Below are positions 5,701 through 39,174 of a stretch of DNA of 64,000 nt, one piece after another; positions within the stretch are counted from its first letter, which is position 1; the number at the start of each line of letters is the position of its first letter. The notes below the pieces were generated by a model, which saw only the letters and a program-made list of their open reading frames with translations, had not been told where the DNA came from and searched no databases. The stretch comes from Clostridia bacterium. Lineage in GTDB: Bacteria > Bacillota > Clostridia > UBA1381. The translations under genes were made by a program, and so were the position numbers. The stretch is taken from the NCBI GenBank assembly GCA_045580715.1, contig JAZNOH010000085.1, forward strand, positions 33,585 to 97,584, written 5' to 3'.

Positions 5701-8700
5701 GATGCTCGTAATGCAGAGGAAATGGTTTCTCGTTATGACCGAAATCAGATTTATGACGAAAACCAGAATCTTGACCCCGATGTTCTCGCTGAGAAATGTC
5801 CTTGGTTGAGAGTGTATAAGATTTCTGCCCCCTACTTTACGAACAATAAGAGCGACAAAGTGCCGAATACTACCATTCAGCAGATTTATAAGAATGGCGA
5901 TGTTGTTTTGGACAACTGGACTTGTTACAATGCTCAGCATAGCGGACAAGGTACCTCCTCTAACAACTACGGTGCTGCTGGTAGAAATCTTGACTTTATT
6001 ATGAATAAGTCTGGCATTGACGGTGTAAACCCCTATTTCAAGTTGGGTGACGGAACCGAAGCAAGTGAGATTACTCTGACACGCACCTCTGTTCCCGTGG
6101 CTTATTTAAATGCAAAAGTCAATATTGCTTCGTCTAATAACTTGACAAATGCAATGTTGGCTAATAGATATAATGAGTTTAACCCCTACAACAGACCTTT
6201 TGTGCGTGACGAGGGCGTTGATACGAGCTTCATTAAAGATACTATGGAATTCCATAACTGTGTAATCTTTATTCAAGAAACTAATGAGGATTTGTCTACT
6301 CATAGAGAGTTTGCCGATAATGATTGGCATTTCTATGCAATCGGTAACATAGGCGACTCAAAGAAAACTGATAATACTCGTTTAACAGATATGAACGATA
6401 AGTATGAATGTTGTGTTGAAATTATGGATGTTGAGTTGCCACTGTCTGACTTTCCCATTGATACAATGTATAATGCAATGGGTTACAAGGAAGATGAGAC
6501 TACGCATGAAAAGAAATATATTTGGGTAAAGAATGAAAATCTAGGAATTCTTTATGAAAAGATTGACGGTGAGTATGTCTTAACTACAGATACCGAGGTT
6601 GATTTAACTAAAACTTATTATGTGGATATTCTTGAACACGATGATTTTAGCGAAGATTATACTTATGGTTGGCGTTATCTTTATGAAGGTGATGACGAAG
6701 AGGAAAATGCTGAAGTATTTGATTACTGTAAACAAAAGTGGATTGAACTTTATAGATTTATAACTACTTCTACCGATGAAGAGTTCAAGAATAGATTTGA
6801 TGAGTATTTTGTAAAAGACACTGCTCTCTACTATTACTTGTTTACCACAAGATATTGTATGGCGGATAACAGAGCCAAGAATTGTTTTATACATTATAGC
6901 AAGACTGGAGAAGTTGATGCTGAAGGTAATCCTATTCGCAAGTGGGATTTATCTTGGGGTTATGATATGGATACCAGCTTGGGTCTTAACAATTACGGTA
7001 AACAAGTCTATCGTTATGGTCTCGAAGATACCGATGTTGACGAAAAGGGCGAGGAAGTGTTTAGAGAATCTGATAGTACATTCTTCTGTCGTGTAAGAGA
7101 CCTCTTCCCTGCCGAACTCAAAGCAATGTACAACACTCTTGAGTCTAAGAATGCTTGGCATGCTGAAAGTTTTATCAACAAAGCAGATGAATGGCAGAGT
7201 CAATTCCCCGAAGAATTATGGCGAGTAGATATTGAGCGTAAGTACATTCGTACCTATAACGGCTCCTTTATTAATGGTAAAGGTGATGCTCAGTTCCTTG
7301 TAAATATGGCGAATGGTAAGATGAAATACCATCGTAGACAATGGGAGCGTAGCCAAGAAAAGTATATGGCTTCAAAATATCAATCTTCTATTGCTTCTTC
7401 TGACAACTCCGTATTTAGATGTAGTGTGCCCAATGGTGACTTGGTGGTTCAACCTAATTATAGATTAAAACTTACGCCTTATGCGTATATGTACTTGAAT
7501 GTTAAGTATGGCACACAAAATCCAATTCAATTAAGAGCAGAACCCAATATCGAATACGAAATCCCATTTGATGGCGAAAAAGCTGATATTGTAGATGTTT
7601 ACAGTTCTTCTCTTATTCAAGACTTTGGTGATTTGTCATCTTGTTATGTGGCGACTGCTGATACAAGTAAGGCAAGCAAGGTTAAGAGGTTGATTTTTGG
7701 TAATAGCACTGAAGGCTATGATAACCCCAACTTTACTACTTTGACAACTGGTGCAAACTATCTGTTAGAGGAATTAAATATCGAGAATGTTTCTGGATTA
7801 ACACAGTCTTTGAATTTAAGCGCATTGAATAATTTGCGTGAGTTATATGCTCATGGTTCTAACATTGGCGGTGTTACATTTGCCGATGGTGGCAAGATTG
7901 AAATTGCCGAATTGCCCGCAATTAACGCTCTTACCATGAAGAATTTGATGTATCTTGCAACACTTGACATTACGGACTTGAGTAAGCTAACTACGCTCAC
8001 AGTTGAGAATTGTGACACCGTTGACTTACTTACTATTTTAAATAATGCGCCCAACATTAATCGTGTAAGGATTGTTGGCATTGATTGGTCGCTTGAAGAT
8101 ACCGCTCTCTTAGAGAGATTATATGCAATGAAGGGTATTGATAGGAATGGTTATAATGCCGACCAGTCTGTATTAACTGGCAGGGTTCATGTGCCTGTTA
8201 TTAGACAGCAGCAATTGTATGATTATCAGAATGCATGGTCTGATTTGGAGATTGTGGCAGATACCATTATTGAACAGTTCGCAGTAACATTTATGAATGC
8301 TGATGGCTCTGTTTTGGAAGTTCAATATGTTGATAAGGGTGAGGATGCTGTTGACCCAACTACAAGGACAGATAACCCTCTCTCCCCCACTATTGCAAGT
8401 ACGGTTGAATATGATTTTACTTTTGCTGGTTGGGATTCTGCTTTGACGGATGTATTCAGTGAAAGAACTATCACGGCTATTTATACTGAGTCGCTTAGAA
8501 GTTATACAATTAAGTATGTTTCCAAGGGTATTACGATGCAAGAGACTACTGGTTTATATGGCGAAAATGTGCCTTATACTGGCGTAAGTCCTACTTATAC
8601 TGCGGAAGAAACTGGTTATGTCTACTATCTCTTTAATCGTTGGGATAAGTCTGGGTTTATCGACGGAGACAAGACTGTTAACGCAATATTCGATAAATTC

Positions 8701-9921
8701 ACATATACTGCAACCGCTTTTGACGGCAAAGAATTAGCAGACCTCTCCCCCGTTGAGATTTATGCCATGAATAAACTTGGGCTTGCCGAAAGTATCGTTA
8801 CAGATAAAGACCCATACACGATTGTTGTAGGTAACGATGTTGATTATGATGATATTGAATCCGAGTTGTTAATTTCTGAAAAGACATATTTCAATGGCTC
8901 TAATTATGTTGATACTGGTATTCAGTTATTTGATACGGATAAAGATTTTGTACTGGCTATGGACTATGAGTTTTTAGATGGCAATACTACAAATGGCGTT
9001 CTTGCACAGTGTTTCCAAGCAAATGGAACCAATGGCTTTAAACTTTGGTATAGCGGCGGTGTAAGGTTTACTTGGGGTACTTCATATGATGACATTGTTG
9101 ATATCAATAAGCGTGAGATTTTGGTTATTCGTCATGTGAAGGGTGATAACAACTTGTATATCTACAAATCTAATCTTGATGGCGATGAAGTTTTGTCTAC
9201 TGAATTGACAAGAACTAAGTCTACCGTTGGTACTGGCACCCTTGTATTTGGTTGTGCAAGAGCGGATGATGGAATCTACGAAAACTATGGCATTGGCAAC
9301 ATTAACTGGGCTAAGGTATGGTATGCAGACCTTGGGGAAGATGTTTGTAAAAACCTTGCTATGTGGACGCACGAATCTATTACATTGGAGGCTTGTGGAT
9401 TTAGGAAGTATTATTTGAGCGACAATACATCTAAGAGATGTTCATTTAGTTTACTCGCTTCTCACTTATTAGGTAGAACTAAGAGATGGAATGCGTCTAA
9501 TACTAACGCTGGTGGCTGGGCTAATTCCGAATTAAACAATGCTTTGAATACAAGATTGTATAATGCTATGCCCACTCAGATTAGAGAACTGCTTAAGAAA
9601 GTGATTGTTTATTCTTCGGTTGGTCAGATGTCTACCGAGTTAAGTTCCTCTGATTGTTATATTACAATCCCAGCGCTTATTGAAGTAGACCCAACTCAAA
9701 CATCGGAACCTTACAACAGTGAGGGTACTTCTATCTCTTATTTGAGCACAAATGATTCGAGAAAACGAGCATTTGATGGTGGAGATTACAATGCTTATTG
9801 GTTGCGTACACCTAATGTTTCTTATGCGAATTATATTTGGCGTATAGAAACCGATGGTCAAACACAAGGAATTACCAATGCCACGAGTAGCTTGGGTGTA
9901 CTTATTGAAATATCGTTTTAA
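2773..9921 (+). CDS. giant multidomain tail/receptor-binding protein (BppU-like N-term, coiled coil, Ig-like region, CotH-like domain, LRR, Listeria-Bacteroides repeats, LamG-like, DUF6273-like C-term)
   Basis: Uninterrupted 2382-aa ORF with RBS AAAGGAGGA. CotH-like motifs ADNRAKNCFIHY and RKWDLSWGYDMDTSLG (about 6865-6990). LRR-like LxxLxL run (about 7600-8100). Two FAVTF/YTIKY...GW repeats (about 8270-8700). C-terminal GGWANSELN...YWLRTP motif. Confidence 0.85.
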   Translation: MSLSFEDSLKNSVTNNIATTENEIIEAVAVMSVDNTSIDSPSIMTLDESYGIAAYSGDDGSWQQHADYVYYSTFSDDNISTISDTKDINLDGKQFNITQEENSQYIPFEMSRYYDGYDLVNAVISIHYETKSGRHGASKPINVTFNNEKIRFGWLVDAGATLDAGKLKFEIHAYGTVTGNDGVSLSYVWKSKSNDTLNVLQSLCDCEEVVNNIDDTWIQELVTDVAEKVADEIKNVAVGEQVTAAENAAASAKQSANDAKQYAENASTAATEEVNKVLENYATTSYVDEAVAGVDVTEQLASYVRTSDLETNYYTKTDTEQRISSALETYATTQYVDNAIADADISGKLENYYTKDETYNKTEIDTALANVSVDLTGYATEKYVDDKAATLSSSISTNTENISSLGTTVSNLQSTVNSIDTSPRLTYDVEYNDAENPDVGENVFVFYEIENEGAENEVKEAKKKFTIVGGSGGGATSSSLKIGYVTTSPLVVTTNDEAIIKYTFSGTDSSGDAVPEGTATWKVAGRIVATNTALAGENSFDVTEYLSVGTQKVNLSIVDEAGSLVTKTWTVQKIDVRLESTFNDKLTYPIGTISFDYTPYGAISKVVHFVLDGVEIGTVTTSSSGIPMAYEIPTQEHGAHLLEVYMTAEINGNAIESNHIVKDIIWYDSASAIPVISTVYQNFTARQYDATNIEYTVYDPTTETPTVEIAIDGNVVSTPTLDKATNVYSFKTDVVGEHTITITCGETVKTLIANITKLDINITPVTAGLVFDFNPSGKSNNDADRVWSNDTVAMTVSDNFDWVNGGYQYDENGDQYFCIKAGTFATIDYQLFADDAKKNGKEMKLVFKTTNVAKPDATFLSCMDNTTDSDHIGIQMDVHEAFIYGQAGKLDLSYSEEDIIEFEFNISKNTEAIPMVMGYEDGVSTRPMVYDDSYNFTQNTPKVISLGSDYCDLHIYRFKVYNTSLTDRGILNNFIADARNAEEMVSRYDRNQIYDENQNLDPDVLAEKCPWLRVYKISAPYFTNNKSDKVPNTTIQQIYKNGDVVLDNWTCYNAQHSGQGTSSNNYGAAGRNLDFIMNKSGIDGVNPYFKLGDGTEASEITLTRTSVPVAYLNAKVNIASSNNLTNAMLANRYNEFNPYNRPFVRDEGVDTSFIKDTMEFHNCVIFIQETNEDLSTHREFADNDWHFYAIGNIGDSKKTDNTRLTDMNDKYECCVEIMDVELPLSDFPIDTMYNAMGYKEDETTHEKKYIWVKNENLGILYEKIDGEYVLTTDTEVDLTKTYYVDILEHDDFSEDYTYGWRYLYEGDDEEENAEVFDYCKQKWIELYRFITTSTDEEFKNRFDEYFVKDTALYYYLFTTRYCMADNRAKNCFIHYSKTGEVDAEGNPIRKWDLSWGYDMDTSLGLNNYGKQVYRYGLEDTDVDEKGEEVFRESDSTFFCRVRDLFPAELKAMYNTLESKNAWHAESFINKADEWQSQFPEELWRVDIERKYIRTYNGSFINGKGDAQFLVNMANGKMKYHRRQWERSQEKYMASKYQSSIASSDNSVFRCSVPNGDLVVQPNYRLKLTPYAYMYLNVKYGTQNPIQLRAEPNIEYEIPFDGEKADIVDVYSSSLIQDFGDLSSCYVATADTSKASKVKRLIFGNSTEGYDNPNFTTLTTGANYLLEELNIENVSGLTQSLNLSALNNLRELYAHGSNIGGVTFADGGKIEIAELPAINALTMKNLMYLATLDITDLSKLTTLTVENCDTVDLLTILNNAPNINRVRIVGIDWSLEDTALLERLYAMKGIDRNGYNADQSVLTGRVHVPVIRQQQLYDYQNAWSDLEIVADTIIEQFAVTFMNADGSVLEVQYVDKGEDAVDPTTRTDNPLSPTIASTVEYDFTFAGWDSALTDVFSERTITAIYTESLRSYTIKYVSKGITMQETTGLYGENVPYTGVSPTYTAEETGYVYYLFNRWDKSGFIDGDKTVNAIFDKFTYTATAFDGKELADLSPVEIYAMNKLGLAESIVTDKDPYTIVVGNDVDYDDIESELLISEKTYFNGSNYVDTGIQLFDTDKDFVLAMDYEFLDGNTTNGVLAQCFQANGTNGFKLWYSGGVRFTWGTSYDDIVDINKREILVIRHVKGDNNLYIYKSNLDGDEVLSTELTRTKSTVGTGTLVFGCARADDGIYENYGIGNINWAKVWYADLGEDVCKNLAMWTHESITLEACGFRKYYLSDNTSKRCSFSLLASHLLGRTKRWNASNTNAGGWANSELNNALNTRLYNAMPTQIRELLKKVIVYSSVGQMSTELSSSDCYITIPALIEVDPTQTSEPYNSEGTSISYLSTNDSRKRAFDGGDYNAYWLRTPNVSYANYIWRIETDGQTQGITNATSSLGVLIEISF

Positions 9922-11934: not shown

Positions 11935-13341
11935 ATGGCGAACACTAAAAAGTATGTTTCTTTAGACAAACTGAGTCTTTATGATGAGAAGATTAAGAAA
12001 GTGATTTCCGATGGCGATGACGCTGCGTTGGTTTCTGCTAAGTCCTATGCTGACGGTCTTGCTGTAAATTATGATGCTGCTGGCGCTGCTGCCACCGCTC
12101 TTTCTGATGCCAAGGCTTATGCCGATGGCAAGGACGCCGCTATTGCTGAGGCTAAGAAGGCTGGTACCGATGCCGCTGCCGCTGCTGCTGTTGCAGACGG
12201 TAAAGCTGTTGCGGCTCAGACCGATGTAGACAACCTTGAGGTTTATGTTGGTGTCATTCCCACAGGTGCTACCGCTACCGATATCGTTGGTTACATTCAG
12301 GAGAAGACCGCTGGTATTGCTACCGAGGGCGCAATGACTGAGCTTGGCAATCGCGTTGGCGCTGTTGAGGGCAAGGTCTCTACTATTGAGGGTGACTACC
12401 TTAAGGGTTCTGATAAGACCGAGCTTGAGGGTAAGATTTCTGCTGTTCAGACTGCGGTTGATACCGAAAAGTCTCGTGCAGAGGGCGTTGAGGCTGGTCT
12501 GAGAACTGATGTTGACGCAATCAAGGACGACTATCTCAAGGCTGCTGACAAGACCGAGCTTCAGGGCAACATTGATACTGTAAGCGCTGCTGTTGAGCGT
12601 CTTACTAACGGCGTTTCCGCTGATGAGGTTGATGGCGTTAACGACCTCATTCAGTATGTAAAAGACCACGGTACTGAAGTAACTGGCATGCAGGAAGACA
12701 TTTCCGAGAATGCTACCGCTATCGCTGGTGTTGCTGGTCGTATGGATACTGCCGAGGGCAAGATTTCCGCTCTTGAAGGCTCTGTCGCTACTAAGGCTGA
12801 GAAGACTTATGTTGATGAGGCTGTAGAGGCTCTTCAGGGTGAGGATACTTCTATCAAGGGTCGTCTTGATAATCTTGAGGCTGCCATTGGCGAGTCTGGT
12901 TCCGTAGCAGATGATATTGCGACTGCAAAACAGGAGGCAATTGACACCGCTGCTGGCGACGCTACAACTAAGGCGAATACTGCTGAATCTAACGCTAAGA
13001 GTTATGCCGATGGTCTTGATGAGGCAATGAACACTCGTGTAGAAGCGCTTGAAGCAATTGACCACGAGCACTCCAACAAGGCAGAGCTTGACCTTATTGC
13101 TTCTGGTGATAAGGCTAAGTGGGATGCTGCCGCTGCCAAGGCTCATGAGCATTCTAACCTTTCCGTTCTTGAGGCTATTACCGCCGCTAAGACTGCCGCT
13201 TGGGATGCTGCTGAGCAGGCTGCAAAGACCTACGCCGACGGTCTGAATTCCGCTATGGACACCAGAGTTAAAACTCTTGAAACTTGGCACAATAACTTTA
13301 CTGAAGTTTCTGAGGAAGAGATTAATGCGCTGTTTGCGTAA
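11935..13341 (+). CDS. Ala-rich coiled-coil tail fibre protein
   Basis: 468 aa with RBS AAAGGAGAAA. N-terminus MANTKKYVSLDKLSLYDEKIKK (shared adaptor motif). Repeated AKSYADG / KTYVDEAV fibre motifs. Ends EEEINALFA. Confidence 0.8.
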   Translation: MANTKKYVSLDKLSLYDEKIKKVISDGDDAALVSAKSYADGLAVNYDAAGAAATALSDAKAYADGKDAAIAEAKKAGTDAAAAAAVADGKAVAAQTDVDNLEVYVGVIPTGATATDIVGYIQEKTAGIATEGAMTELGNRVGAVEGKVSTIEGDYLKGSDKTELEGKISAVQTAVDTEKSRAEGVEAGLRTDVDAIKDDYLKAADKTELQGNIDTVSAAVERLTNGVSADEVDGVNDLIQYVKDHGTEVTGMQEDISENATAIAGVAGRMDTAEGKISALEGSVATKAEKTYVDEAVEALQGEDTSIKGRLDNLEAAIGESGSVADDIATAKQEAIDTAAGDATTKANTAESNAKSYADGLDEAMNTRVEALEAIDHEHSNKAELDLIASGDKAKWDAAAAKAHEHSNLSVLEAITAAKTAAWDAAEQAAKTYADGLNSAMDTRVKTLETWHNNFTEVSEEEINALFA

Positions 13342-13484: not shown

Positions 13485-15458
13485 ATGGCGATTAAAAAAT
13501 ATTTGTCATTAGACAGATTGACCGAATATGATGCCTTAATCAAAGAAGATTATGAGCAAAAAATTGCCAATGCTGTCAGTGGCAAAGCCAATTCTTCTCA
13601 TACCCACGACGATAGATATTATACTGAAACTGAAATAGACACCAAGCTCGCTGGTAAGTCTGATACTTCTCATACTCATAGCAACTATGTGCCTACTTCT
13701 CGTACAGTAAACGGCAAGGCTTTGACTGCTAATATAACTCTCTCTGCTTCTGATGTTGGTGCTTTGCCTGATACTACCACCATTCCTTCGATTGAAGGAC
13801 TTGCAACTGAAACTTATGTTGATGATGTTGCTTCTACTAAAGTAGATAAAGTTAGCGGAAAAGGCTTATCTACAAATGATTATACGACCACAGAAAAGAA
13901 CAAACTTTCAGGCATTGCTTCTGGTGCGGAAGTAAACCAAAATGCATTTTCTAATGTTATTGTTGGCTCAACTACTATTGCGGCAGATTCTAAGACTGAT
14001 AGTTTGACGATTGCCGCAGGAACAGGAATTTCTGTTTCTGGTGACGCAACCAATGATAAGGTTACTATCACAAACTCAGGTGTTCGTTCTATTGCAACTG
14101 GTTCTACCAATGGTACTATATCAGTCAATACTAATGGAACTTCTGCTGAAGTAGCCGTTAAAGGTCTTGGTTCTGCCGCATATACAGCATCTTCGGCTTA
14201 TGATGCTGCTGGTACCGCACAGACAAAAGCCGATGCAGCATTGGCTTCCGCTAAGTCCTATGCAGACAGTGCCGCTGCAACCGTTAAGAATGATTTGCTT
14301 AATGGTGCTGGAACTGCTTACGACACTCTCAAAGAGCTTGGTGATTTGATTGTGGATAATGCGGACGCAATTGAGGCACTTGAAACAATTGCTTCTGGAA
14401 AAGCTGACGCTTCTCACTCCCACGCTATCGCAGATGTATCTGGTCTGCAGACAGCACTCGACGGTAAAGCCGCTGCTTCTCACGGAACTCATGTAACCTA
14501 TTCTACTACGGCTCCTGTAATGGATGGTACTGCTTCTGTTGGTTCTGCCGCCACTGTCGCTCGTTCTGACCACAAACACCCCACTGATACGAGCAGGGCA
14601 TCTAAAACCGAATTTGACGCTCATACATCTGATACTACTGCACATATCACATCCACTGAGCGCACAAATTGGGGAGCGGCTTATACACACTCTCAAGCTG
14701 CCCACGCCCCTTCCAATGCAGAAAAGAACCAAAATGCATTTAGTAATATTACTGTAGGTTCTACAACAGTAGCCGCTGATACTACAACCGATACAGTTAC
14801 TTTCGTAGGAAGCAATGTAACAATCACTCCCGATGCAACAAATGATAAGATTACTTTTGCTGTTGCGAGTGGTTCGACAAGCACGGCGGGTATTGTAAAG
14901 CTTACAAATAGCACATCGAGCACATCTACAACGACTGCCGCTACGCCGAGCAGTGTTAAATCTGCATATGACTTAGCGAATACGGCAAATACTGCTGCGG
15001 CTAAGGCACAAGCAACTGCTGATGGCAAGGCAAATGCAACTCACACTCATAAAGTATCTGACATTTCTGACCTTACAGCCACTGCAACAGAGCTTAATTA
15101 CATGGATGGCGTTACATCTAATGTCCAAACTCAGTTAGATGGCAAAGCTGCATCTTCTCACTCTCATAGCGATGCCACCACTTCCACCGCTGGCTTTATG
15201 ACGGCTGCGATGGTTAGCAAGTTAAATGGCATTGCAACAGGTGCTAATAAAACTACCGTAGACTCTGCTTTGTCGAGCACTTCTACCAACCCCGTACAGA
15301 ACAAGGTTGTTAATGCGTCCATTACCGATTTAACTTCGGCAGTGTCGGCAAACACCTCTAGTATTTCCTCTCATTCTTCTGCTATTTCTGCACTTCAGAC
15401 AACAGTTGGGGAGATTCAGGAAATTACATCTGCGGAAATTCAGGCTCTCTTTGCCTAA
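13485..15458 (+). CDS. tail fibre protein with HxH repeats
   Basis: 657 aa with RBS AAAGGAGAAA. N-terminus MAIKKYLSLDRLTEYDALIK. Six HxH motifs (SHTH, SHSH, DHKH, THTH). Modules shared with the 873-aa and 1197-aa fibres. Ends SAEIQALFA. Confidence 0.85.
   Translation: MAIKKYLSLDRLTEYDALIKEDYEQKIANAVSGKANSSHTHDDRYYTETEIDTKLAGKSDTSHTHSNYVPTSRTVNGKALTANITLSASDVGALPDTTTIPSIEGLATETYVDDVASTKVDKVSGKGLSTNDYTTTEKNKLSGIASGAEVNQNAFSNVIVGSTTIAADSKTDSLTIAAGTGISVSGDATNDKVTITNSGVRSIATGSTNGTISVNTNGTSAEVAVKGLGSAAYTASSAYDAAGTAQTKADAALASAKSYADSAAATVKNDLLNGAGTAYDTLKELGDLIVDNADAIEALETIASGKADASHSHAIADVSGLQTALDGKAAASHGTHVTYSTTAPVMDGTASVGSAATVARSDHKHPTDTSRASKTEFDAHTSDTTAHITSTERTNWGAAYTHSQAAHAPSNAEKNQNAFSNITVGSTTVAADTTTDTVTFVGSNVTITPDATNDKITFAVASGSTSTAGIVKLTNSTSSTSTTTAATPSSVKSAYDLANTANTAAAKAQATADGKANATHTHKVSDISDLTATATELNYMDGVTSNVQTQLDGKAASSHSHSDATTSTAGFMTAAMVSKLNGIATGANKTTVDSALSSTSTNPVQNKVVNASITDLTSAVSANTSSISSHSSAISALQTTVGEIQEITSAEIQALFA
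14250..14600 (+). repeat. diverged paralogous fibre module (copy 1)
   Basis: Encodes AKSYADSAAATVKNDLLNGAGTAYDTLKELGDL...HGTHVTYSTTAPVMDGTASVG...ARSDHKHPTDTSRA. Nearly colinear with 20382-20732. Confidence 0.8.
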
Positions 15459-15640: not shown

Positions 15641-18262
15641 ATGGCAGATAAAAAGGTATTTACAGATGAAAGTTTGGCTACTTTTGTTGATGAGATAAAG
15701 GCATATACAGACAATGCCGTTTCAGGCAAAGCTGACGAACACACCCACCCATACCTATCTTCTGGCACCAAGTACGCACTTTCAGACAGCGTTGGTGGAA
15801 ATGCGTTAATATCAAATAAAATGTCAGTTATAGGCAGAGTCTCTTCAAGTAATACCATTTTCCAAGCCGCTGCCGCTGCTGCGGTTAGAACTGAAGAAAT
15901 ATGGTTTGGTGGCTCAGATGGAGTTGCAGGTGGTATGCCAGCAGCTTATTGTATTACAGTTATTAAAAAAGGTGATAACCACAGAACCCTTTTAGATTGC
16001 TATCACTTAAATACTGGAAATCATTATATTAATGGTTGCATGGACACTAGGGATACAACTACATATCCATGGACGGGCTGGACTAAGCAGCCTACCGCAT
16101 CCGACCTCTCAACATTGAATGCTACAGTAGCAGGAAAAGCAAATGCTTCTCACACTCACGACGACAGGTATTACACAGAGACAGAAATTGATACCAAACT
16201 TTCAGAAATAAACGCATCTATTTCTGAAAAAGCCAATACTTCGCATACTCATACAGTTGCCAATATTTCTGACTTAACTGCAACTGCCACTGAATTAAAT
16301 TATGTTAGTGGCGTTGACAGCAATATTCAGACGCAGTTAGACGATAAACCCAACACCTCTGACCTTGGTTTTGTAAGAGTGGTATCTTGTTCTTCGAGTG
16401 ATGGAATTGCCTATACAGGAACGACCGATGGTATAACTGCTTTAACTGCGGGATTAACCATAGTCTTTATTCCCAATAAAACAAGCGCAAGCAAATCTCC
16501 TACACTAGATATTAACGGACTTGGTGCGAAGGGCATCAGAAGAAGATTGAGTCACCTTTCAACCACTGCACAATCGGGATACGCAAATACTTGGCTTTTT
16601 GCAAACAAGCCATTTTTGCTTATGTATGATGGAACTCAATGGATAGTTGACGGTTTAACAAAGCCGTCTGCAGTCGATTTATATGGAACGCCCGCTTTGG
16701 CAACCAAAGCGAATCAAGACGGTAATGGAAATGTTATTGTCGATACTTATGCTACAAAAACTGAATTAGAGGCTGTAAGTGATGCACTCGAAAACGAGAC
16801 TCTCCCAGATTATTGGGAAACCTATTTACCCGATAAAATAGCAGCTATTAAGGCTCTACAGGCAGCGGGAGGGAAAAATTGTTTTTCATTTATAGTTATG
16901 TCGGATATTCACTACTCATCAAATCTTGGCAAACGCTCTCCCGCCATAGCCAAAAGAATTATGGATGAATGCGACATTCGTTATGCTCTTGTGCTTGGAG
17001 ACTCGCAAGGTAGCGGTTCGCTTGCGTCCCTAGAGTTCACACAGGAGGAGTGGAATAACATTCACACTATGTTCAAACCTATTGCTGATAGGGCTTTATT
17101 CCAGTGTGGAAACCACGATGGTTCGTGGGGTGCCGCACTTTCCGATGGCACTACTTATCCGTACAATTTTACACCAGAGGAGCTTTATACGCTTGTGCAA
17201 AACAAAACATACGCCCATCATGATGTTGTGACTGATGAAAGTGGTACGGGCTATTATATTGACGATGTACCCCATAAAGTGCGCTATATCTTATTAAACA
17301 CAACTTGTAATGAGTATGTCGAGAATGCTGATGGTAGCGCTAAATATAATAACATGACTCATGCTCGATACACTCAGAGCCAGTACGATATGTTAATTGA
17401 GGCTCTGACAACCGTAAAATCTGGCTGGTCGGTTGTTGTAGCGTCTCATGTGCCTCCCAATGATGCATATGCCGATTATTTTGGTGGCGACACTACTGAG
17501 GGTGACGCTGTTATTATGCGCGGATTATTGAAGGCATATAAGAACAAGACTTCGTACACGGCGAGCTGGGATGGGACGGCTGGCGGTACAAGTTATACAA
17601 ACCTTTTTGACCCTTCTGGGGCGGGTTTTTATAACGACGGGACAAATATTTATTCGAACTGGATTCCTTATACTTCGGGCACTACCTATCATATAAAGGG
17701 GTGGGAAGATAACAATGCATCATGGGCTAACCCTTATAAAATGCATTTCTCCGACACTGCCGACGCTGCTTATAGTGGCGGTACAGGTCTGATGTATTGT
17801 TCCAATGCCAATGTAACGGCTAAAACTACAGCAGACTACGATAGTAGTGTTAGACTTATCAGACATGACACCGATTATTACACATACATTCAATTTTATT
17901 TTGCTTCTCAGACAAATGTTGACAACATAATTATTACGGCTAATGAACCCATCGCAGAAGGCGGCGCAGGTTACGATGCCGTTTCTGTTGATGTTGATTT
18001 CTCTGACGCAAATGGTGACCTTATAAGTTATTTTGCGGGGCATATGCATAAAGACTATCTTTATTCCAATACCGACTACGGCTTTGGCTTTAATATTATT
18101 ACCACTGCTTGTGATGCAGATTTGAATACTAGCGTCGCACATACTGAGGGTACAGTAACCGAACAATCTTTCGATGTTTTTACGGTGAATCGTAAAACGG
18201 GCACTATTTATGCCACTAAGATTGGTGCGGGCGAAGACCGCGAAATTGATATTAACGCTTAA
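15641..18262 (+). CDS. tail fibre protein fused to C-terminal calcineurin-like metallophosphoesterase domain
   Basis: 873 aa with RBS AAAGGAGAAA. Fibre N-terminus MADKKVFTDESLATFVDEIK plus HxH motifs and PTLDINGLGAKGI. All five MPE motifs occur in order: VMSDIHY, LVLGDS, GNHD, SHVPP, GHMHKD. Confidence 0.85.
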   Translation: MADKKVFTDESLATFVDEIKAYTDNAVSGKADEHTHPYLSSGTKYALSDSVGGNALISNKMSVIGRVSSSNTIFQAAAAAAVRTEEIWFGGSDGVAGGMPAAYCITVIKKGDNHRTLLDCYHLNTGNHYINGCMDTRDTTTYPWTGWTKQPTASDLSTLNATVAGKANASHTHDDRYYTETEIDTKLSEINASISEKANTSHTHTVANISDLTATATELNYVSGVDSNIQTQLDDKPNTSDLGFVRVVSCSSSDGIAYTGTTDGITALTAGLTIVFIPNKTSASKSPTLDINGLGAKGIRRRLSHLSTTAQSGYANTWLFANKPFLLMYDGTQWIVDGLTKPSAVDLYGTPALATKANQDGNGNVIVDTYATKTELEAVSDALENETLPDYWETYLPDKIAAIKALQAAGGKNCFSFIVMSDIHYSSNLGKRSPAIAKRIMDECDIRYALVLGDSQGSGSLASLEFTQEEWNNIHTMFKPIADRALFQCGNHDGSWGAALSDGTTYPYNFTPEELYTLVQNKTYAHHDVVTDESGTGYYIDDVPHKVRYILLNTTCNEYVENADGSAKYNNMTHARYTQSQYDMLIEALTTVKSGWSVVVASHVPPNDAYADYFGGDTTEGDAVIMRGLLKAYKNKTSYTASWDGTAGGTSYTNLFDPSGAGFYNDGTNIYSNWIPYTSGTTYHIKGWEDNNASWANPYKMHFSDTADAAYSGGTGLMYCSNANVTAKTTADYDSSVRLIRHDTDYYTYIQFYFASQTNVDNIIITANEPIAEGGAGYDAVSVDVDFSDANGDLISYFAGHMHKDYLYSNTDYGFGFNIITTACDADLNTSVAHTEGTVTEQSFDVFTVNRKTGTIYATKIGAGEDREIDINA

Positions 18263-18398: not shown

Positions 18399-21300
18399 AT
18401 GGCAACTACAGATAATAGCGCAATACAACCATTAGATGTATATGACCCCATATGTAGTTCAGATAGTGTTTGGTATAAGGATAATGAGCTTTATTCGGTA
18501 TCCGATAAATTGGATGATATGGATGCGGTTATTGCGGCTAAAGCTGATTCCACACATACTCACACTGATTATGCATCCCAGTCTGATTTAGCTTTGCTGG
18601 AAGATGTTATTGGCACAAAGGCTAATGCTGTGCATACTCACTCCCAATATGCATCTTCTTCACATAGTCATGACGACTATGCAACCGTAATCGCACTTGA
18701 TACCCTTGAAAGCGAACTTGATAGCAAGGCAGATGCAAGTCATACTCATGCTGAGTATGCGCCCACCTCTCATACGCATAGTGAATACGCAGAAACTAAT
18801 CATGCTCACAGTAATTATGCTGAAACAACACATGCTCACGATAATTATGCGTCTGTTTCTCATACTCATACCGCATCTGAGGTCGGTGCGGCAGTTAGTG
18901 AACACAATCACGATGAAGATTATGCGGTAATTAACCATACACACACAGATTATGCCACCGTCACTTCTTTGAATGAACTTTCTGCAACTGTTTCTGGCAA
19001 AGCAAACGCTTCTCACTCCCACGACGATGTTTATTATACAGAGACCGAGATTGACACCAAACTTGCTGCCAAGGCGGATTCTACTCATAATCACGATGGC
19101 GTATATGATGTAAGCGGTGCGGCTGCAAGTGCTTTGACATCTGCCAATGCCTATACGGATTCTAAGATTGATGCTTTGGTTGGCGAGGGCGCTTCGGTTA
19201 CTCTTGATACTATTGGTGAGATTTCGTCTGCCATTGTAGACAACCAAGATGCAATTGATTTACTTAATGCTGCTATTGCAAACAAGGCTAATGCTACTGA
19301 TTTAAATTCCCACGCAAATGATACAGAGCTTCATATTACCACAACTGAAAGAAACAACTGGAACGCTAAGTCTGATTTCTCAGGCAGTTACAATGACTTG
19401 ACTAACAAGCCCAGTATTCCTTCCATTGATGGTTTGGCTAGTGAAGATTATGTAGATGAAAAGGTTGGTTCGGTTACAGTAGAGTCAATTGGCGCTTTGC
19501 CTAACACCACAGTAATTCCAACGGTTCCAACTAATGTCTCTGCTTTTACTAATGACGCAGGTTATCTCACGGAACATCAAAGTCTTGACGGATTAGCCAC
19601 TGAAACCTATGTAAATACACAGATTGATGCAATTGATATTCCTAGTGCCCTTTCTGATTTAACCACAGATTCTACCCATAGGCTTGTAACAGATACAGAA
19701 AAGGCTGTTTGGAATGCAAAGTCTGATTTTAGTGGTAATTACAATGATTTGACTAATAAACCCTCCATCCCCTCAATTACTGGTCTTGCCACTGAGACTT
19801 ATGTTGACGAGGCAGTAAGTTCCAAGGCTGATAGTGGTCACAATCATAATGATGTTTATTATACCGAAACAGAAGTAGACTCTCTTCTTTCTGCAAAATC
19901 TAATTCCTCTCATAACCACGATTCTTCTTATGATGCATTGGGCACCGCCGAAACAAAGGCAAATGCGGTTCAGGCTAATTTAGATGTGGTAAGCGAAGAC
20001 CTGACGGAGCATATCGACAATGCTGACATTCATTTCACTACCGCTGAAAGAACTAAATTAAGTGGTATTGCTGCCAATGCAAATAATTATACTCATCCTA
20101 ATTCTGGTGTTACCGCTGGGACATATAAGAGCGTAACAGTGAATGCGCAAGGACATATTACAGGTGGCGCCAATCCTACTACTCTTGCAGGTTATGGTAT
20201 TACCGATGCAGAAACGAAGGGCGCTGCAAATAGTGCTCTTACTTCTGCAAAAGCATATACCGATGAACTTATTGCCGACGAGGTGGCAAACAGAGATTCT
20301 GCCATCGCTACTGCAAAGAGTTCCGTTATTTCTACAGCTTCTTCTGATGCAACCACCAAGGCTAATAATGCTCTTGCTTCGGCAAAAACATACACAGACT
20401 CTGCTGTTGCCACTGTTAAGAATGATTTACTCAACGGTGCAGGAACTGCATATGATACTCTTAAAGAACTTGGCGACTTAATTGATGATAATACAGATGC
20501 TATTAGTGCTTTGGAGACCGTGGCAAGTGGCAAGGCTAACTCCGTACACACCCACGCTATCTCTGATATAACAAATCTCCAAACTACACTAAATGGCAAG
20601 GCTAATACAAGCCATGGTACTCATGTAACTTATTCGACAACCGCTCCCGTAATGGACGGAACTGCAAGTGTTGGTACCGCTTCTACCGTTGCTCGCTCCG
20701 ACCATAAGCATCCTACTGATACTTCGAGAGCGGCACAGACGGATTTAGATGCTCTTGAAACTGTTGTGGCGGGAAAGGCTAATTCAAGCCATACACACAC
20801 TATTGCAAATGTAACTAATTTACAAAGTGCATTAGATGCAAAACAATCTGCTATTACGGGTGGCGCAAGTACTATTACAAGTTCTAATTTAACTACTAAT
20901 AGAGCATTGATTTCTAATGGTTCAGGCAAGGTTGCTGTTTCGGCAGTCACCTCTACGGAATTAGGATATTTAGATGGTGTAACTTCTAATGTTCAAACGC
21001 AGTTAGATGGCAAGGCGGCTTCGAGCCATACTCATAATTATGCTGGCTCCTCTTCTGTTGGTGGTGCCGCTACAAGCGCAAACAAATTAAACACAAATGC
21101 TGGCGATGCAAATACTCCTGTTTACTTTGCAAATGGTGTACCAGTTGCTTGCACAGGTTTAGATTTGAATACTACTGGAAGTTCTGCGAGTTGCACTGGT
21201 AACTCGGCAACCGCCACCAAACTTGCTACTGCTCGTACTATTAATGGCACATCATTTGATGGAACTTCGGATATAAATCTAGCAAGAGCCTATAACTACT

Positions 21301-21992
21301 CTTTGGGTCAAGTTGGAAACAATGTTTCTTATTGTATGTTCGCAAGAACAAGTAGCAGTAACACGAGCGGTAATTGTGGTGCCACATTATTGGTGACTGA
21401 CTGTGGTAATTTTGGCGGTACATTGGCTGGTGCGTGGCTTGTTCAGTTGTCCAATAGAGGCAGCAAACCAACAATGAATGTAACAACTTTGTTGGCAAAC
21501 AATAATGGCACTGTTACTTTTGGCTATTATACTACTGAAGATTATTTTTATTTTGGAGTATATTGTGGCACTTATGCTTCAGATAGAACAATAACCGTAT
21601 TGCGCAATACCAGTGTAACCTTACAAGATTTCGGAGATACAACAACAGCGCCAAATGGTTGGACTGCTGTTACTCCAAGAGTCTTGTCTGTTGATGGGCA
21701 TACACATTCTTACGCTGGTTCTTCAAGTGTAGGTGGAGCTGCTACAAGTGCGAATAAATTGAATACTAATGCTGGTTCTGCAACTCAACCCGTATACTTT
21801 GCGAATGGCGTTCCCGTAAAAACGACATACACGCTTGGAGCTTCGGTGCCATCTGGAGCCAAATTCACAGACACGACTTATAGTGTTGCAACGACTTCCG
21901 CAAATGGTTTAATGGGCGCATCTGATAAGTCTAAATTGGATGGAATGGTATTGGCTACTGTTTCTGAAGTTGAAACATATCTTGGAATTTAA
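18399..21992 (+). CDS. long tail fibre protein with about 19 HxH motifs
   Basis: 1197 aa with RBS AAGGAGGAA. Dense run of (S/T/N)H(T/S/A/N)Hxx(Y)A repeats. Internal duplication HTH(N/S)YAGSSSVGGAATSANKLNTNAG...PVYFANGVPV. Ends ATVSEVETYLGI. Confidence 0.9.
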   Translation: MATTDNSAIQPLDVYDPICSSDSVWYKDNELYSVSDKLDDMDAVIAAKADSTHTHTDYASQSDLALLEDVIGTKANAVHTHSQYASSSHSHDDYATVIALDTLESELDSKADASHTHAEYAPTSHTHSEYAETNHAHSNYAETTHAHDNYASVSHTHTASEVGAAVSEHNHDEDYAVINHTHTDYATVTSLNELSATVSGKANASHSHDDVYYTETEIDTKLAAKADSTHNHDGVYDVSGAAASALTSANAYTDSKIDALVGEGASVTLDTIGEISSAIVDNQDAIDLLNAAIANKANATDLNSHANDTELHITTTERNNWNAKSDFSGSYNDLTNKPSIPSIDGLASEDYVDEKVGSVTVESIGALPNTTVIPTVPTNVSAFTNDAGYLTEHQSLDGLATETYVNTQIDAIDIPSALSDLTTDSTHRLVTDTEKAVWNAKSDFSGNYNDLTNKPSIPSITGLATETYVDEAVSSKADSGHNHNDVYYTETEVDSLLSAKSNSSHNHDSSYDALGTAETKANAVQANLDVVSEDLTEHIDNADIHFTTAERTKLSGIAANANNYTHPNSGVTAGTYKSVTVNAQGHITGGANPTTLAGYGITDAETKGAANSALTSAKAYTDELIADEVANRDSAIATAKSSVISTASSDATTKANNALASAKTYTDSAVATVKNDLLNGAGTAYDTLKELGDLIDDNTDAISALETVASGKANSVHTHAISDITNLQTTLNGKANTSHGTHVTYSTTAPVMDGTASVGTASTVARSDHKHPTDTSRAAQTDLDALETVVAGKANSSHTHTIANVTNLQSALDAKQSAITGGASTITSSNLTTNRALISNGSGKVAVSAVTSTELGYLDGVTSNVQTQLDGKAASSHTHNYAGSSSVGGAATSANKLNTNAGDANTPVYFANGVPVACTGLDLNTTGSSASCTGNSATATKLATARTINGTSFDGTSDINLARAYNYSLGQVGNNVSYCMFARTSSSNTSGNCGATLLVTDCGNFGGTLAGAWLVQLSNRGSKPTMNVTTLLANNNGTVTFGYYTTEDYFYFGVYCGTYASDRTITVLRNTSVTLQDFGDTTTAPNGWTAVTPRVLSVDGHTHSYAGSSSVGGAATSANKLNTNAGSATQPVYFANGVPVKTTYTLGASVPSGAKFTDTTYSVATTSANGLMGASDKSKLDGMVLATVSEVETYLGI
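18540..19100 (+). repeat. degenerate in-frame tandem repeat encoding the HxH array
   Basis: Twelve consecutive H-x-H units: THTHTDYA, VHTHSQYA, SHSHDDYA, SHTHAEYA, SHTHSEYA, NHAHSNYA, THAHDNYA, SHTHTASE, EHNHDEDYA, NHTHTDYA, SHSHDDVY, THNHDGVY. Confidence 0.85.
20382..20732 (+). repeat. diverged paralogous fibre module (copy 2)
   Basis: Encodes AKTYTDSAVATVKNDLLNGAGTAYDTLKELGDL...HGTHVTYSTTAPVMDGTASVG...ARSDHKHPTDTSRA. Counterpart of 14250-14600. Confidence 0.8.
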
Positions 21993-22010: not shown

Positions 22011-22262
22011 ATGGCAGAAGTAAAAAATAAAATTGTCACAGTCGAATCTTTGGCTGCTGTACATACACACAATCAAGATACATATATGACAAAATCTAAC
22101 CCCACTGGCGTTGGCACAATGACAATGACTGGTGATGGCAACTTTTCTGGTATTGTAGATGTTGGTTCTTTAAGATTGGGAGATGCAATGCTTGAATATG
22201 ATTCAACTGATGGCGTCTTGAAAATTGTATTTGGCACTACCGAAGACGATGTTACTGAGTAA
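22011..22262 (+). CDS. small fibre-like protein
   Basis: 83 aa with RBS AAAGGAAAGAATGAATTATG. N-terminus MAEVKNKIVTVESLAAVHTHNQD carries the adaptor-like motif and one HxH. Confidence 0.6.
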   Translation: MAEVKNKIVTVESLAAVHTHNQDTYMTKSNPTGVGTMTMTGDGNFSGIVDVGSLRLGDAMLEYDSTDGVLKIVFGTTEDDVTE

Positions 22263-22279
22263 GACTTGGAGGTGATATT

Positions 22280-23803
22280 ATGGCAGCACCAAGCGGAATT
22301 GTTTGGGGTTCGATTGTTGGTGGTTATGGACGAATAGGAATTTATGTCAAACTTACTAACACAAACACACAAACAACAAGACATACAGAAATTTGGTTTT
22401 GGAGTAAGTATTCGGTAGACGATTCTGCAAATACATTTTATTACAATGATAATGCAACAACCGCTACCACTTCTAAAGGAGCTGTAAATATCAATACAAC
22501 CGTGGCTTCGGGTAGTGGATGGTCTACTTCTAACCAAGTAAAATTAAAAGAATACGATTATACATTTACGAGAGGAACAAGTTCTTCTAAGCGTTATGTA
22601 GCTGCTAAACTCACAAATGTTGATAGAGTTGGCGGTACGATGTCGGTTAGCACAAGCTACACCATCCCCGCTTTAGCAAGTTATACCGTTAAATATAGCG
22701 CTAACGGTGGTAGTGGAGCACCTTCTTCTCAGACGAAATATTACGGCAAGACTTTAACTTTGTCGAGCACAAAACCTTCACGAACTGGGCATACATTTAA
22801 AGGCTGGGCTACATCTGCAAGTGGCAGCGTGGCTTATGCTTCGGGGGCAAGCTATACGGCAAATGCCTCTATAACATTGTATGCAGTTTGGCAAGCAAAT
22901 ACTTATACGGTTAAGTACAATGCTAATGGTGGCACAGGAGCACCGAGTTCTCAAACGAAGACTTATGGGGTTGCATTAACATTGTCTTCAACAAAGCCAA
23001 CAAGAGCCTCTGTTGATAGCGGCGATGGAGTTTTAACTACATACACATTTAAAGGTTGGGCTACTTCTGCTAACTCGTCTACAGTTGCATATGCTGCAGG
23101 AGCGAAATATACAGCCAATGCTTCTGTCACATTATACGCAGTATGGAGTACAAAGACCACAGTTACAGAATATGATGTTGTATACAATACAAATGGTGGT
23201 TCAAATGTTAGCCCTCAGGTTAAAACAAAGGGAGTGGCACTTACCTTAAGAAGCACTATTCCTACTAAAAATGGATATACATTTAAAGGTTGGGGGTTGT
23301 CTGAAGATGCTACAACAGTTGCATATGCTGCTGGAGCAAGTTATACAACCGATGCTGACATTATTTTATATGCTATTTGGACTCCTTGGACACACATAGT
23401 TCAGTTTAATGTAAATGGTGGCACTGGCACCGTTCCATCAAGCTTTACTAAAACAACAGATGTAGATGTGACGATTCCAGAAGGAAATATTTCAAAGGCG
23501 AATTGTGTATTTAAGTGTTGGTCTACAAAAGCAAGTGGTTCTGGTGGTACTAACTATTATATTGGCGACGCATACGAAGCTACAAAAAATGGTGGCACAG
23601 TAACTTTATATGCCATTTGGAAAGAAAGAAAGGTACTGATATATAAAGCTGACAAGAGTTGTGAAGCCGTCGAATTTATTGAGAGCGATGAAATACTTGG
23701 GTTTGAAAATACAGGTATGATATATGCACCAGAATTTATAGAAGATGGTAGTTTGATTTTAGGCGAAACAAGCTTCCACTTCGGAGAATTAGTTGAAAGA
23801 TAA
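22280..23803 (+). CDS. tail protein with about five Listeria-Bacteroides (InlB B-type) repeats
   Basis: 507 aa with RBS GGAGGTGA. Repeats of YTVKY.ANGG.GAPSSQTK.YG..LTLSSTKP.R.G.TFKGWATSA....AYA.GA.YTANAS.TLYAVW. Confidence 0.8.
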   Translation: MAAPSGIVWGSIVGGYGRIGIYVKLTNTNTQTTRHTEIWFWSKYSVDDSANTFYYNDNATTATTSKGAVNINTTVASGSGWSTSNQVKLKEYDYTFTRGTSSSKRYVAAKLTNVDRVGGTMSVSTSYTIPALASYTVKYSANGGSGAPSSQTKYYGKTLTLSSTKPSRTGHTFKGWATSASGSVAYASGASYTANASITLYAVWQANTYTVKYNANGGTGAPSSQTKTYGVALTLSSTKPTRASVDSGDGVLTTYTFKGWATSANSSTVAYAAGAKYTANASVTLYAVWSTKTTVTEYDVVYNTNGGSNVSPQVKTKGVALTLRSTIPTKNGYTFKGWGLSEDATTVAYAAGASYTTDADIILYAIWTPWTHIVQFNVNGGTGTVPSSFTKTTDVDVTIPEGNISKANCVFKCWSTKASGSGGTNYYIGDAYEATKNGGTVTLYAIWKERKVLIYKADKSCEAVEFIESDEILGFENTGMIYAPEFIEDGSLILGETSFHFGELVER

Positions 23804-25058: not shown

Positions 25059-26492
25059 ATGATGCGTATGACTACTTTTGACAGAGAGAAGAAGGTCAGA
25101 AGAGCGTTTGACACTAGTAAGGTATTAAGAACGGCTGCCTATATTCGGGTGTCGAGCGACGAGCAGGTTAAGCATGGCTTCTCGATTGAGGCGCAGAAAG
25201 AGGGTTTGCAGAAATACGCCGAAGAACGAGGTTATAGGATTGTAGAATGGTACATTGATGAAGGTAAGTCTGCTCGTGGTAAAACTACGAAAAGGAAAGA
25301 ATATTTAAGACTTATCGAAGATGCTAAAAGAGGCAAATTTGAAATGATTATATTCAAATGTTTGGACAGATGGTTTAGGAATATAAGTGAGTATTACAAG
25401 GCTCAATCTGTTTTGGATGAAAAGGGTATTAACTGGGAATGTAGCGAAGAAGACTTTGATACAACCACTCGTGATGGTCGTTGGAAACTTCATATTTACC
25501 TCATGCTTGCACAAGATGAAGCGGACAAAACAAGTGAGCGTATCAATTATGTATTCGCACATAAAATTCAAAACAGAGAAGCTATATCTGGTTCCCAACC
25601 ATATGGCTTCAAAGTAAAAGAGATAGACGGTTTTAAAAGGGTTGTTAAAGACGAAAGTGTGTCTTGTATTGTTGATGATGTTTTTGATAACTTTGAACTT
25701 TTCAATTCTAAGAGAGCAACACTTTATTTCATACAAGACAAATACGATATTAAAGTGGAATACAAGTTAATAGGTCATATATTAACTAATCCTTATTATT
25801 ATGGTCATTATCGTGGTGTAGATGATTATATATGGGGTGGTTCTTATATTACAAAAGAACGCTACGACAAAATTCAGAAAATGTTAAAGAAAAATGTCAA
25901 AGCTCGTAAAAATAAAAAGAACCAAGATTATATTTTTAGCGGATTATTAGTATGCAGTATTTGTGGTTGCAAACTTTCGGCTCATTGTACCGACCTTCCT
26001 TTAGCAGATGGTAGCAAAAAAACTTATTTATTTTACAGATGCAGCAGGGCTGCTATGGCTAACAAATGTACTTCAAGGGGAACATTTAGTGAGATTAAGT
26101 TAGAGCAAAAACTAATACAGTCAATAGAAGAAGAAATTGAGGATTATATTTGCGAATATGAATTGGATGTCAAAAAAGAAAAGAAACCCAAAGTTGATAT
26201 TAAAAGTGTCAAAGAAGAGATACAACGGTTAAATGTTTCTTGGAGGAAGGGTCGTATGGAAGAATCGGAATATGATTATGAGTTTGAAAGATTGCAAAAG
26301 AAATTAGAAAAGGCACAAGAGGAGATTCCAGAAAAACACGATTTAACTCCTTTGTATGATTTCTTAAATAGTGGCTGGAAAGATATTTATGACACCTTAA
26401 CTTCTGTTGAGAAGAGGGCTTTGTGGCGCTCGGTAATTGACATAATAGAAGTTGATGTGTTGAATAAGGAATTTAAGATTAAGTTTATATAA
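25059..26492 (+). CDS. large serine recombinase (integrase)
   Basis: AAYIRVSSDEQVKHGFSIEAQ catalytic-serine motif. Resolvase domain, recombinase domain, Zn-ribbon CSICGCKL...YRCSRAAMANKC and a C-terminal coiled coil. The ATG at 25068 has the better spacing from AAAGGG. Confidence 0.9.
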   Translation: MMRMTTFDREKKVRRAFDTSKVLRTAAYIRVSSDEQVKHGFSIEAQKEGLQKYAEERGYRIVEWYIDEGKSARGKTTKRKEYLRLIEDAKRGKFEMIIFKCLDRWFRNISEYYKAQSVLDEKGINWECSEEDFDTTTRDGRWKLHIYLMLAQDEADKTSERINYVFAHKIQNREAISGSQPYGFKVKEIDGFKRVVKDESVSCIVDDVFDNFELFNSKRATLYFIQDKYDIKVEYKLIGHILTNPYYYGHYRGVDDYIWGGSYITKERYDKIQKMLKKNVKARKNKKNQDYIFSGLLVCSICGCKLSAHCTDLPLADGSKKTYLFYRCSRAAMANKCTSRGTFSEIKLEQKLIQSIEEEIEDYICEYELDVKKEKKPKVDIKSVKEEIQRLNVSWRKGRMEESEYDYEFERLQKKLEKAQEEIPEKHDLTPLYDFLNSGWKDIYDTLTSVEKRALWRSVIDIIEVDVLNKEFKIKFI

Positions 26493-36855: not shown

Positions 36856-36880
36856 ATCTATATCCTTTCTTTATATATAT

Positions 36881-38848: not shown

Positions 38849-38856
38849 CTTTCACC

Positions 38857-39054
38857 TCAAAACATAACTAAATTTTCTCGGATTAAATAGTCGTCGCACT
38901 TAGAGAAATTTACATTGGTCTGCTTGGTGCAATATTCAATGTCCTTTTCGGTGCAATAGTCATCTTCGGGAATGTAAAACTGACAGGTGCGGCACTTAAT
39001 CTTGCACTTGCCCCCCTTCTTGTTCGACTTCTTCTGAGTCTTCTTATCGCTCAT
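38857..39054 (-). CDS. small Cys-rich protein
   Basis: 65-aa ORF (CKIKCRTCQFY...C..C). First gene downstream of promoter P2. Confidence 0.55.
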   Translation of the reverse strand: MSDKKTQKKSNKKGGKCKIKCRTCQFYIPEDDYCTEKDIEYCTKQTNVNFSKCDDYLIRENLVMF

Positions 39055-39094
39055 TTTTCTTTTGCCTTTCTTAATATTTTTATAACTTTATTTG

Positions 39095-39125
39095 TTAGGG
39101 CTTCTAAAATTTTTAGAAACCCTAA
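39095..39125. promoter_or_regulatory. 31-nt near-perfect palindrome in the leader downstream of promoter P2
   Basis: TTAGGGCTTCTAAAA-t-TTTTAGAAACCCTAA (14 of 15 arm positions pair). It starts about 8 nt after the predicted TSS. Confidence 0.55.
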
Positions 39126-39139
39126 ATTGTTACGGTAAT

Positions 39140-39168
39140 ATTATACACAATCAAAATTGATTTGTCAA
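39140..39168 (-). promoter_or_regulatory. consensus SigA-type promoter P2
   Basis: Minus strand TTGACA-17 nt-TATAAT. The same flanking A/T-tract element as P1. It overlaps the 3-prime end of the helicase gene. Confidence 0.8.
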
Positions 39169-39174
39169 TAGGTT

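Follow-up and report, generated by a model that had tools for sequence, protein, structure and literature searches.

The window analysed here, a stretch of 64,000 nucleotides from a Clostridia bacterium assembly (contig JAZNOH010000085.1), is part of a large phage of roughly 100 kb (the contig carrying the fibre measures 101.5 kb) that encodes a tail fibre of 1197 amino acids (aa; P0001, 18399-21992, + strand) with arrays of the histidine motif H-x-H (HxH). Judged from sequence, these HxH arrays are probably the repeat from which a large family of phages that infect gut Firmicutes builds the shafts of its homotrimeric tail fibres, and they would act there as metal clamps on the fibre axis. Axial sites of six histidines around one metal ion (His6-metal sites) are the best reading of the arrays, because the histidine pairing is strict, the pairs are nearly invariant, and other segments of the fibre match solved multi-chain fibres. 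The HxH array family is an uncatalogued and unsolved variant of a known phage design, with thousands of metagenomic relatives.

The open reading frame of the 1197-aa fibre contains 48 histidines and 19 HxH motifs, which agrees with the count of about 19 in the first-pass annotation, as well as one HGTH variant. Composition-preserving shuffles of the same protein (n = 2000) yielded only 1.9 HxH on average and 7 at most. The region is of low complexity, and this would fit an origin of the arrays by chance or as a by-product of a His/Thr-rich composition. The probability of such an origin is practically negligible, however, as it is ruled out by the difference between a shuffle maximum of 7 and the 19 motifs observed, by the 2658 relatives that were found, and by the invariance of the His columns among them.

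These relatives are widespread. A word-indexed search with residues 40-250 recovered 440 proteins, all of them metagenomic. With the N-terminal array as query, an exhaustive phmmer search of 1.84 billion cluster representatives (clustered at 50% identity) returned 2658 matches at E ≤ 1e-3, 754 at E ≤ 1e-10 and 83 at E ≤ 1e-30. Among the 255 relatives that were fetched the median was 17 HxH; 101 proteins have at least 19, and in 70 there are 12 or more sites in close succession. The 1197-aa fibre of the window is an average family member, and the idea that the HxH array is a peculiarity of this phage was not borne out by these numbers. The extreme among the fetched proteins is P0004 (2075 aa, from a JGI metagenome), in which an N-terminal BppU_N domain is followed by 75 HxH in runs of up to 27. 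Another relative, P0253, has ten decapeptide-spaced HxH in a row (HTHTEYAPTI, HEHSQYAQAN and so on) and then a T4 Gp10_C domain. Related fibres were also found in faecal metagenome-assembled genomes of Clostridia and Bacilli, for example Wujia sp. When 50,697 phage records were searched with the array by tblastn, no match to a cultured phage was obtained, to which the low-complexity filter of BLAST may have contributed. The Pfam family PF12789 ('Phage tail repeat like', PTR) is mentioned by no paper in the library that was searched. With 2658 clusters at 50% identity, the family is common in gut metagenomes, so that one solved member would allow fibre proteins to be annotated by the thousand, and it could provide a modular scaffold for protein design and for the engineering of fibres.

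Twelve of the 19 motifs form an N-terminal module array (18540-19100, + strand; residues 48-234). They span residues 53-232 and follow each other at distances of 26, 10, 26, 10, 10, 10, 10, 14, 11, 26 and 24 residues, in modules of 10, 11, 14, 24 and 26 residues. The first-pass annotation had described this part of the fibre as twelve like units. Twelve HxH are indeed present, but they belong to a mixture of 10-residue and roughly 24-26-residue modules, and an exact fit to HxHxxYA is seen in just 8 of the 12 units; a ninth fits after a shift of one residue.

Across the family the distances from one HxH to the next are quantised at 10, 11, 22, 24 and 26 residues, and each module starts at HxH. 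The consensus is HTHseYA..s for the 10-residue module and HNHD.dYA.is for the 11-residue module. The longer modules read HnHtIsNVdGLQsALDGKAaSs (22 residues), HtHDDRYYTEtEvDTlLaGKSDts (24 residues, the commonest unique module) and HtHs.YAT.tdLd.LedeVdGKANas (26 residues). Five residues before the first His there is a K or Y in 80% of the modules, and four residues before it an A in 77%. The long modules have hydrophobic residues at a spacing of 3-4, and both this pattern and the structure models predict that they carry a short helix.

One of these modules has a Pfam entry. The 22-residue module of Pfam PTR (PF12789), HxHxIxxVxxLQxALxGKAxxS, represents the same family, but PTR covers this helix-containing module only, whereas the 10-, 11- and 26-residue modules lie outside it. 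PTR scored 51.5 bits on the whole 1197-aa fibre, against a gathering cut-off of 27, with its best stretch at residues 705-743. On the N-terminal array alone it scored 15.9 bits, below the cut-off, and no Pfam model reached its threshold there.

The 24-residue module turned out to be the same element as the 'junction' that had been noted earlier as conserved in three fibres. The motif does recur in three fibres, in four copies (residue 45 of the 657-aa fibre, residue 177 of the 873-aa fibre, and residues 212 and 487 of the 1197-aa fibre), but it is an ordinary module, one of five regular types, and no special joint. The 1197-aa copies have DDVYY or NDVYY in place of DDRYY.

At the DNA level, Tandem Repeats Finder detected no tandem repeat in the array, and recent DNA slippage as the origin of the repeats was ruled out on that ground. 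The HxH units therefore appear to be old, diverged in DNA and kept by selection at the protein level. The only DNA echo of the repeats is a 39-nucleotide family that encodes the G-K-A-x-x-S-H-x-H anchor, with nine copies in four genes at 62-87% identity.

The histidines are strictly paired across the family. In the 255 fetched members, H-x-H occurs 4459 times, whereas none of the other His-His gaps between 0 and 6 is seen more than 259 times, and HxH pairs hold 76% of all histidines. After the GKA anchor both histidines are present in 1894 cases and neither in 765, while the first His alone occurs in 173 and the second alone in only 4. Every sampled example of the 173 first-His-only cases was the fixed HGTH variant. 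After the YA anchor the corresponding numbers are 528 for both and 362 for neither, with a single case each for the first or the second His alone. Half-sites are essentially absent, and the two histidines act as a single unit. This near-absence of half-sites is expected if each pair contributes as a bidentate ligand to coordination of fixed geometry. In an alignment of 63 sequences (A1), the paired histidines of the array show full invariance or a conservation of at least 90%, and most neighbouring residues vary; the invariant columns are mostly these HxH histidines.

Paired histidines might also serve a purely structural role. In a metal-free ladder, the histidines would pack or form hydrogen bonds, both among themselves and to the conserved Tyr, maybe as a pH-sensitive switch. 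The conserved Tyr-Ala three residues after HxH, together with the acidic residues at positions +3/+4, could form such a hydrogen-bond network, and AlphaFold2 (AF2) models are uninformative on this point. However, strict i/i+2 pairing and all-or-none loss are the signature of known His6 sites, and all solved axial-HxH trimeric phage fibres and spikes cited in PMC6116203 contain metal. A metal-free ladder is thus unlikely in our view. If the sites were nevertheless empty, the strict pairing would need a new explanation.

The proposal of a metal-stapled trimeric shaft in the first-pass annotation is favoured, at the level of sequence, by the strict i/i+2 pairs, their joint loss, their near-invariance and the relatedness to multi-chain fibres. 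The trimer geometry, the metal occupancy and the metal identity at the array we infer, with iron as the precedent. Each module consists of (K/Y)A-x-x-S-H-x-H and a spacer, which is either short (7-8 residues, 'xxYAxxx') or long (a two-heptad amphipathic helix ending in G-K-A). When three chains join in such a shaft, the three HxH pairs of one level would form an octahedral His6 site with one metal ion on the axis, and the helical spacers would form short three-helix bundles between the sites. The stack of sites, of which the N-terminal array would have 12 and the full-length fibre up to 19-20, may set the register of the chains during folding and stiffen a very thin shaft, and the length of this shaft could be tuned by the addition or deletion of whole modules. 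The module grammar would then be a simple, length-tunable route to rigid trimeric rods, one that has no solved structure and whose short modules lie outside Pfam.

A bolder version of the metal-bound shaft is that the decapeptide and helix-HxH modules form a new fibre fold with a continuous axial column of 12 to more than 25 closely spaced His6-metal centres, and of up to 75 in relatives like P0004. We regard this version as possible, at somewhat below an even chance. If such a column exists, these fibres would be the most metal-dense protein rods known, and they might act as a sink of gut transition metals, or respond to redox state or pH during infection.

Several parts of the fibre and its relatives point to proteins of more than one chain. 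Residues 297-330 match the Listeria-type Gp15 (E = 0.0011), whose PDB entry, 6r5w, contains three chains. The tail collar fibre gp4 of mycobacteriophage Bxb1 (PDB 9d93, nine chains) is matched by residues ~778-909 (E = 6.5e-5); the matched region includes SSHTHSIANVTGLQDALD and an HxH-helix unit of gp4 itself, but the match covers PTR-type modules only. With the family profile of A1, the Dec protein of phage L (6e3c) was matched in its C-terminal part (E = 2.4e-5). In relatives the array is fused to BppU_N, Gp10_C or phi29 head-fibre (Phage_head_fibr) domains. These three domain families are homotrimers.

Such relatives bear on a different architecture, in which a single chain forms a 'rope' and dimers of a small partner protein dock onto it as beads, as in the podophages GP4 and A1002. 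Repeat-bearing ropes exist (PMC13730344), and small open reading frames of 83, 106 and 156 aa lie nearby. Size alone is no bar either, since the A1002 rope measures about 300 Å for 11 dimers (PMC13730344). Yet short amphipathic helices occur in the chain of the window fibre, along with modules that resemble parts of multi-chain fibre proteins, and in its relatives the array is linked to BppU_N and Gp10_C domains. As for beads like those of GP4, A1002 and VP1, neither the 156-aa nor the 83-aa neighbour has a match in the PDB or to a protein family, which is a weak, sequence-only negative. Altogether, a rope with beads is highly improbable. Matches to Ralstonia phages were considered as a pointer to the GP4 rope, but a re-search with the PTR region gave no Ralstonia records, and the matches probably concern another part of the fibre.

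Metal sites on the axis of a trimeric fibre have a well-characterised counterpart in T4 gp37. Each HxH level of gp37 binds one Fe on the axis, and the needle is six-stranded since its chain folds back at the tip. The seven di-histidine motifs of the needle coordinate Fe (PMC12609058). In total gp37 has 8 HxH, of which seven lie in needle residues 883-998 at spacings of 32, 14, 37, 14, 9 and 9 residues. This long-tail-fibre needle (PDB 2XGF; PF03335, Phage_fiber) resembles the window array in its small-residue-H-(S/T)-H repeats along a trimeric fibre and in the 9-10-residue spacing on one chain, and because the needle spacings include 9, a site spacing of 9-10 residues on one chain has precedent. 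Local HxH density is similar as well, with 7 motifs in 118 aa of the needle and 12 in 187 aa of the window array. The first-pass annotation called the HxH arrays very dense. This is true of the number of sites (12-19 versus seven), but not of their spacing and local density, which are about equal to those of the gp37 needle. Tips like that of gp37 are those of Bas63 and of Burkholderia phage E094 gp23, and fibres with six or seven HxH have been reported as notable (PMC11705849, PMC8174754, PMC12609058). If its sites are occupied, the window fibre would hold ~19 metal ions per trimer, and some relatives several times more, compared to seven in T4 gp37.

The comparison with gp37 and the structure models also provide the points that weigh against a trimeric shaft with axial metal. 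PF03335, a profile of the 14-residue GxHxH repeat, had no match in residues 40-250 even at E ≤ 10, whereas in the control it scored 44.3 bits on the T4 gp37 needle, in 6 stretches. Likewise, hhalign of the array against the gp37 needle gave a probability of 0.1%. Because both comparisons are negative, the analogy with gp37 rests on the motif, not on homology. The two elements also differ in position: the window array lies near the N-terminus, and some 960 residues come after it, whereas the gp37 needle is a C-terminal tip. This long chain after the array argues against a folded-back needle of the gp37 type and suggests that the fold differs. Unlike the needle, the window array alternates with short helices, and it reaches 12-19 sites, with up to 75 per chain in relatives. 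Sequence and profile searches of the PDB found no solved relative of the N-terminal array, and the decapeptide module was found in no solved structure. Finally, the AF2 monomer models are of low confidence and silent on the orientation of the histidines. The model of residues 40-250, built from the 63-sequence alignment, had a mean predicted local distance difference test score (pLDDT) of 57.8 and a predicted template modelling score of 0.17, and that of residues 690-1197 a mean pLDDT of 50.2. Within the former, of which the overall confidence is low, helices flanking the HxH sites were predicted at residues 61-75, 97-110, 188-202 and 215-226 with a block pLDDT of about 70-79, and their positions coincide with the long modules of 3-4 hydrophobic pattern. 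Low-confidence coil was predicted for the turns at HxH and for the zone of decapeptides (residues 114-171).

Other fibres offer precedents for single metal sites. The stem of Gp45 of Staphylococcus phage phi11 binds Fe3+ by His42 and His50 of three chains between two helix bundles (PMC4901313). By structural analogy, this stem is the closest analogue of the helix-HxH-helix modules: phi11 is also a siphophage of a Gram-positive host, and its BppU-like triple-helix bundles are broken by a His6-Fe 'lock'. It differs in that the motif is H-x7-H, not HxH, and that there is a single site; sequence similarity to the window fibre was not found. The R-pyocin shaft contains a buried octahedral His6-Fe site formed from HxH, for which roles as a reference point in folding and in the balance of stiffness have been proposed (PMC6116203). 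The R1 and R2 pyocin fibre Shaft (PDB 6CL5, 6CL6) thus resembles the proposed structure as a thin trimeric shaft with an HxH His6-Fe site, but it has one site in 93 Å and no stack, and sequence similarity was not detected.

The histidine pairs could, alternatively, face outward and, instead of stapling the axis, bind free metal or a ligand on the host surface, as in the 'Ferrojan horse' idea or in attachment to a cell-wall polymer. Papers on marine phages propose that tail-fibre iron is a ligand of host receptors (PMC11705849), and His pairs on beta-strands can chelate metals at a protein surface. The array of the window is, however, N-terminal and proximal to the baseplate rather than at the distal tip. 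Moreover, its modules are interchangeable among fibres with differing distal domains, which fits a structural role. Outward-facing pairs are therefore very unlikely.

Beyond the N-terminal array, the 1197-aa fibre is a mosaic: its residues 466-904 share 40% identity with the 657-aa fibre (residues 24-508 of the latter). Two modules of the 24-residue type (19824-19922, + strand) have HxH at residues 481 and 505 and include the second 'junction' copy. They are followed by PTR-type modules with HxH at residues 717, 769 and 798 and HGTH at residue 739 (20532-20798, + strand), in the region that resembles Bxb1 gp4. The HGTH (H-x-x-H) variant, in the stretch at 20600-20720 (residues ~735-775), is conserved and then followed by VTYSTTAPVMDGTASVGTASTVARSDHKHP. 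This stretch is nearly identical among relatives, and the variant is the sole regular exception to the HxH rule.

Towards the C-terminus, a segment of ~40 aa occurs in two copies that each start with HTH, at residues 877 and 1101 (21012-21707, + strand), and that flank a distal domain of ~180 aa. The copies themselves lie at 21027-21146 (residues 877-916) and 21699-21818 (residues 1101-1140), and share the pattern HTHxYAGSSSVGGAATSANKLNTNAG..PVYFANGVPV. The match to Dec (6e3c) in the A1 profile search falls at positions like those of this duplicated segment. A profile match to a solved protein, FtbO (PDB 9j1l), shows SHTH and NHTH just before ATxTxxGxMSxxDKxKLD, a motif that also ends the window fibre.

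HxH motifs are found in four other genes for fibre or fibre-like proteins on the + strand. The 657-aa tail fibre (13485-15458) has six HxH, the number noted earlier, and matches the Pfam families PTR (41.5 bits) and Phage_fiber_2. For the 873-aa tail fibre (15641-18262) three HxH had been noted. Three fibre-type motifs are present, but the total is four, as the GHMH at residue 801 is a motif of the calcineurin-like phosphoesterase domain. Residues ~416-620 of this fibre match a calcineurin-like metallophosphoesterase (PF00149, 23.2 bits versus a cut-off of 21.5; phrog_7158 at 6e-31), which may be a virion-borne phosphodiesterase directed against a cell-wall polymer. The 83-aa protein (22011-22262) has one HxH right after a short fibre-like N-terminus, in line with the earlier count, and a 468-aa fibre-like protein (11935-13341) has two HEH motifs.

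Upstream of the fibre genes, the window encodes a baseplate upper protein with a BppU_N domain (766-2016, + strand), which points to a siphophage-type baseplate carrying trimeric fibres, and a tail protein of 2382 aa (2773-9921, + strand). The latter has a C-terminal DUF6273 (phrog_14959, E = 4.5e-74) and, unlike the fibres, not a single HxH. Downstream of the fibres follow a Listeria-Bacteroides repeat protein, a receptor-binding-type protein and a serine integrase. The repeat protein (507 aa; 22280-23803, + strand) lies directly after the fibre genes, contains four Listeria-Bacteroides repeats (PF09479, E = 1.5e-46) and is likely an additional host-adhesion protein. The integrase is a large serine recombinase (25059-26492, + strand). 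On the minus strand, DNA polymerase, NrdD, NAD-dependent ligase and helicases are encoded at 34684-44756, and a primase is encoded on this strand as well. Such a set of genes, an integrase together with the phage's own replication machinery, points to a temperate phage of large size that infects a gut Firmicute.

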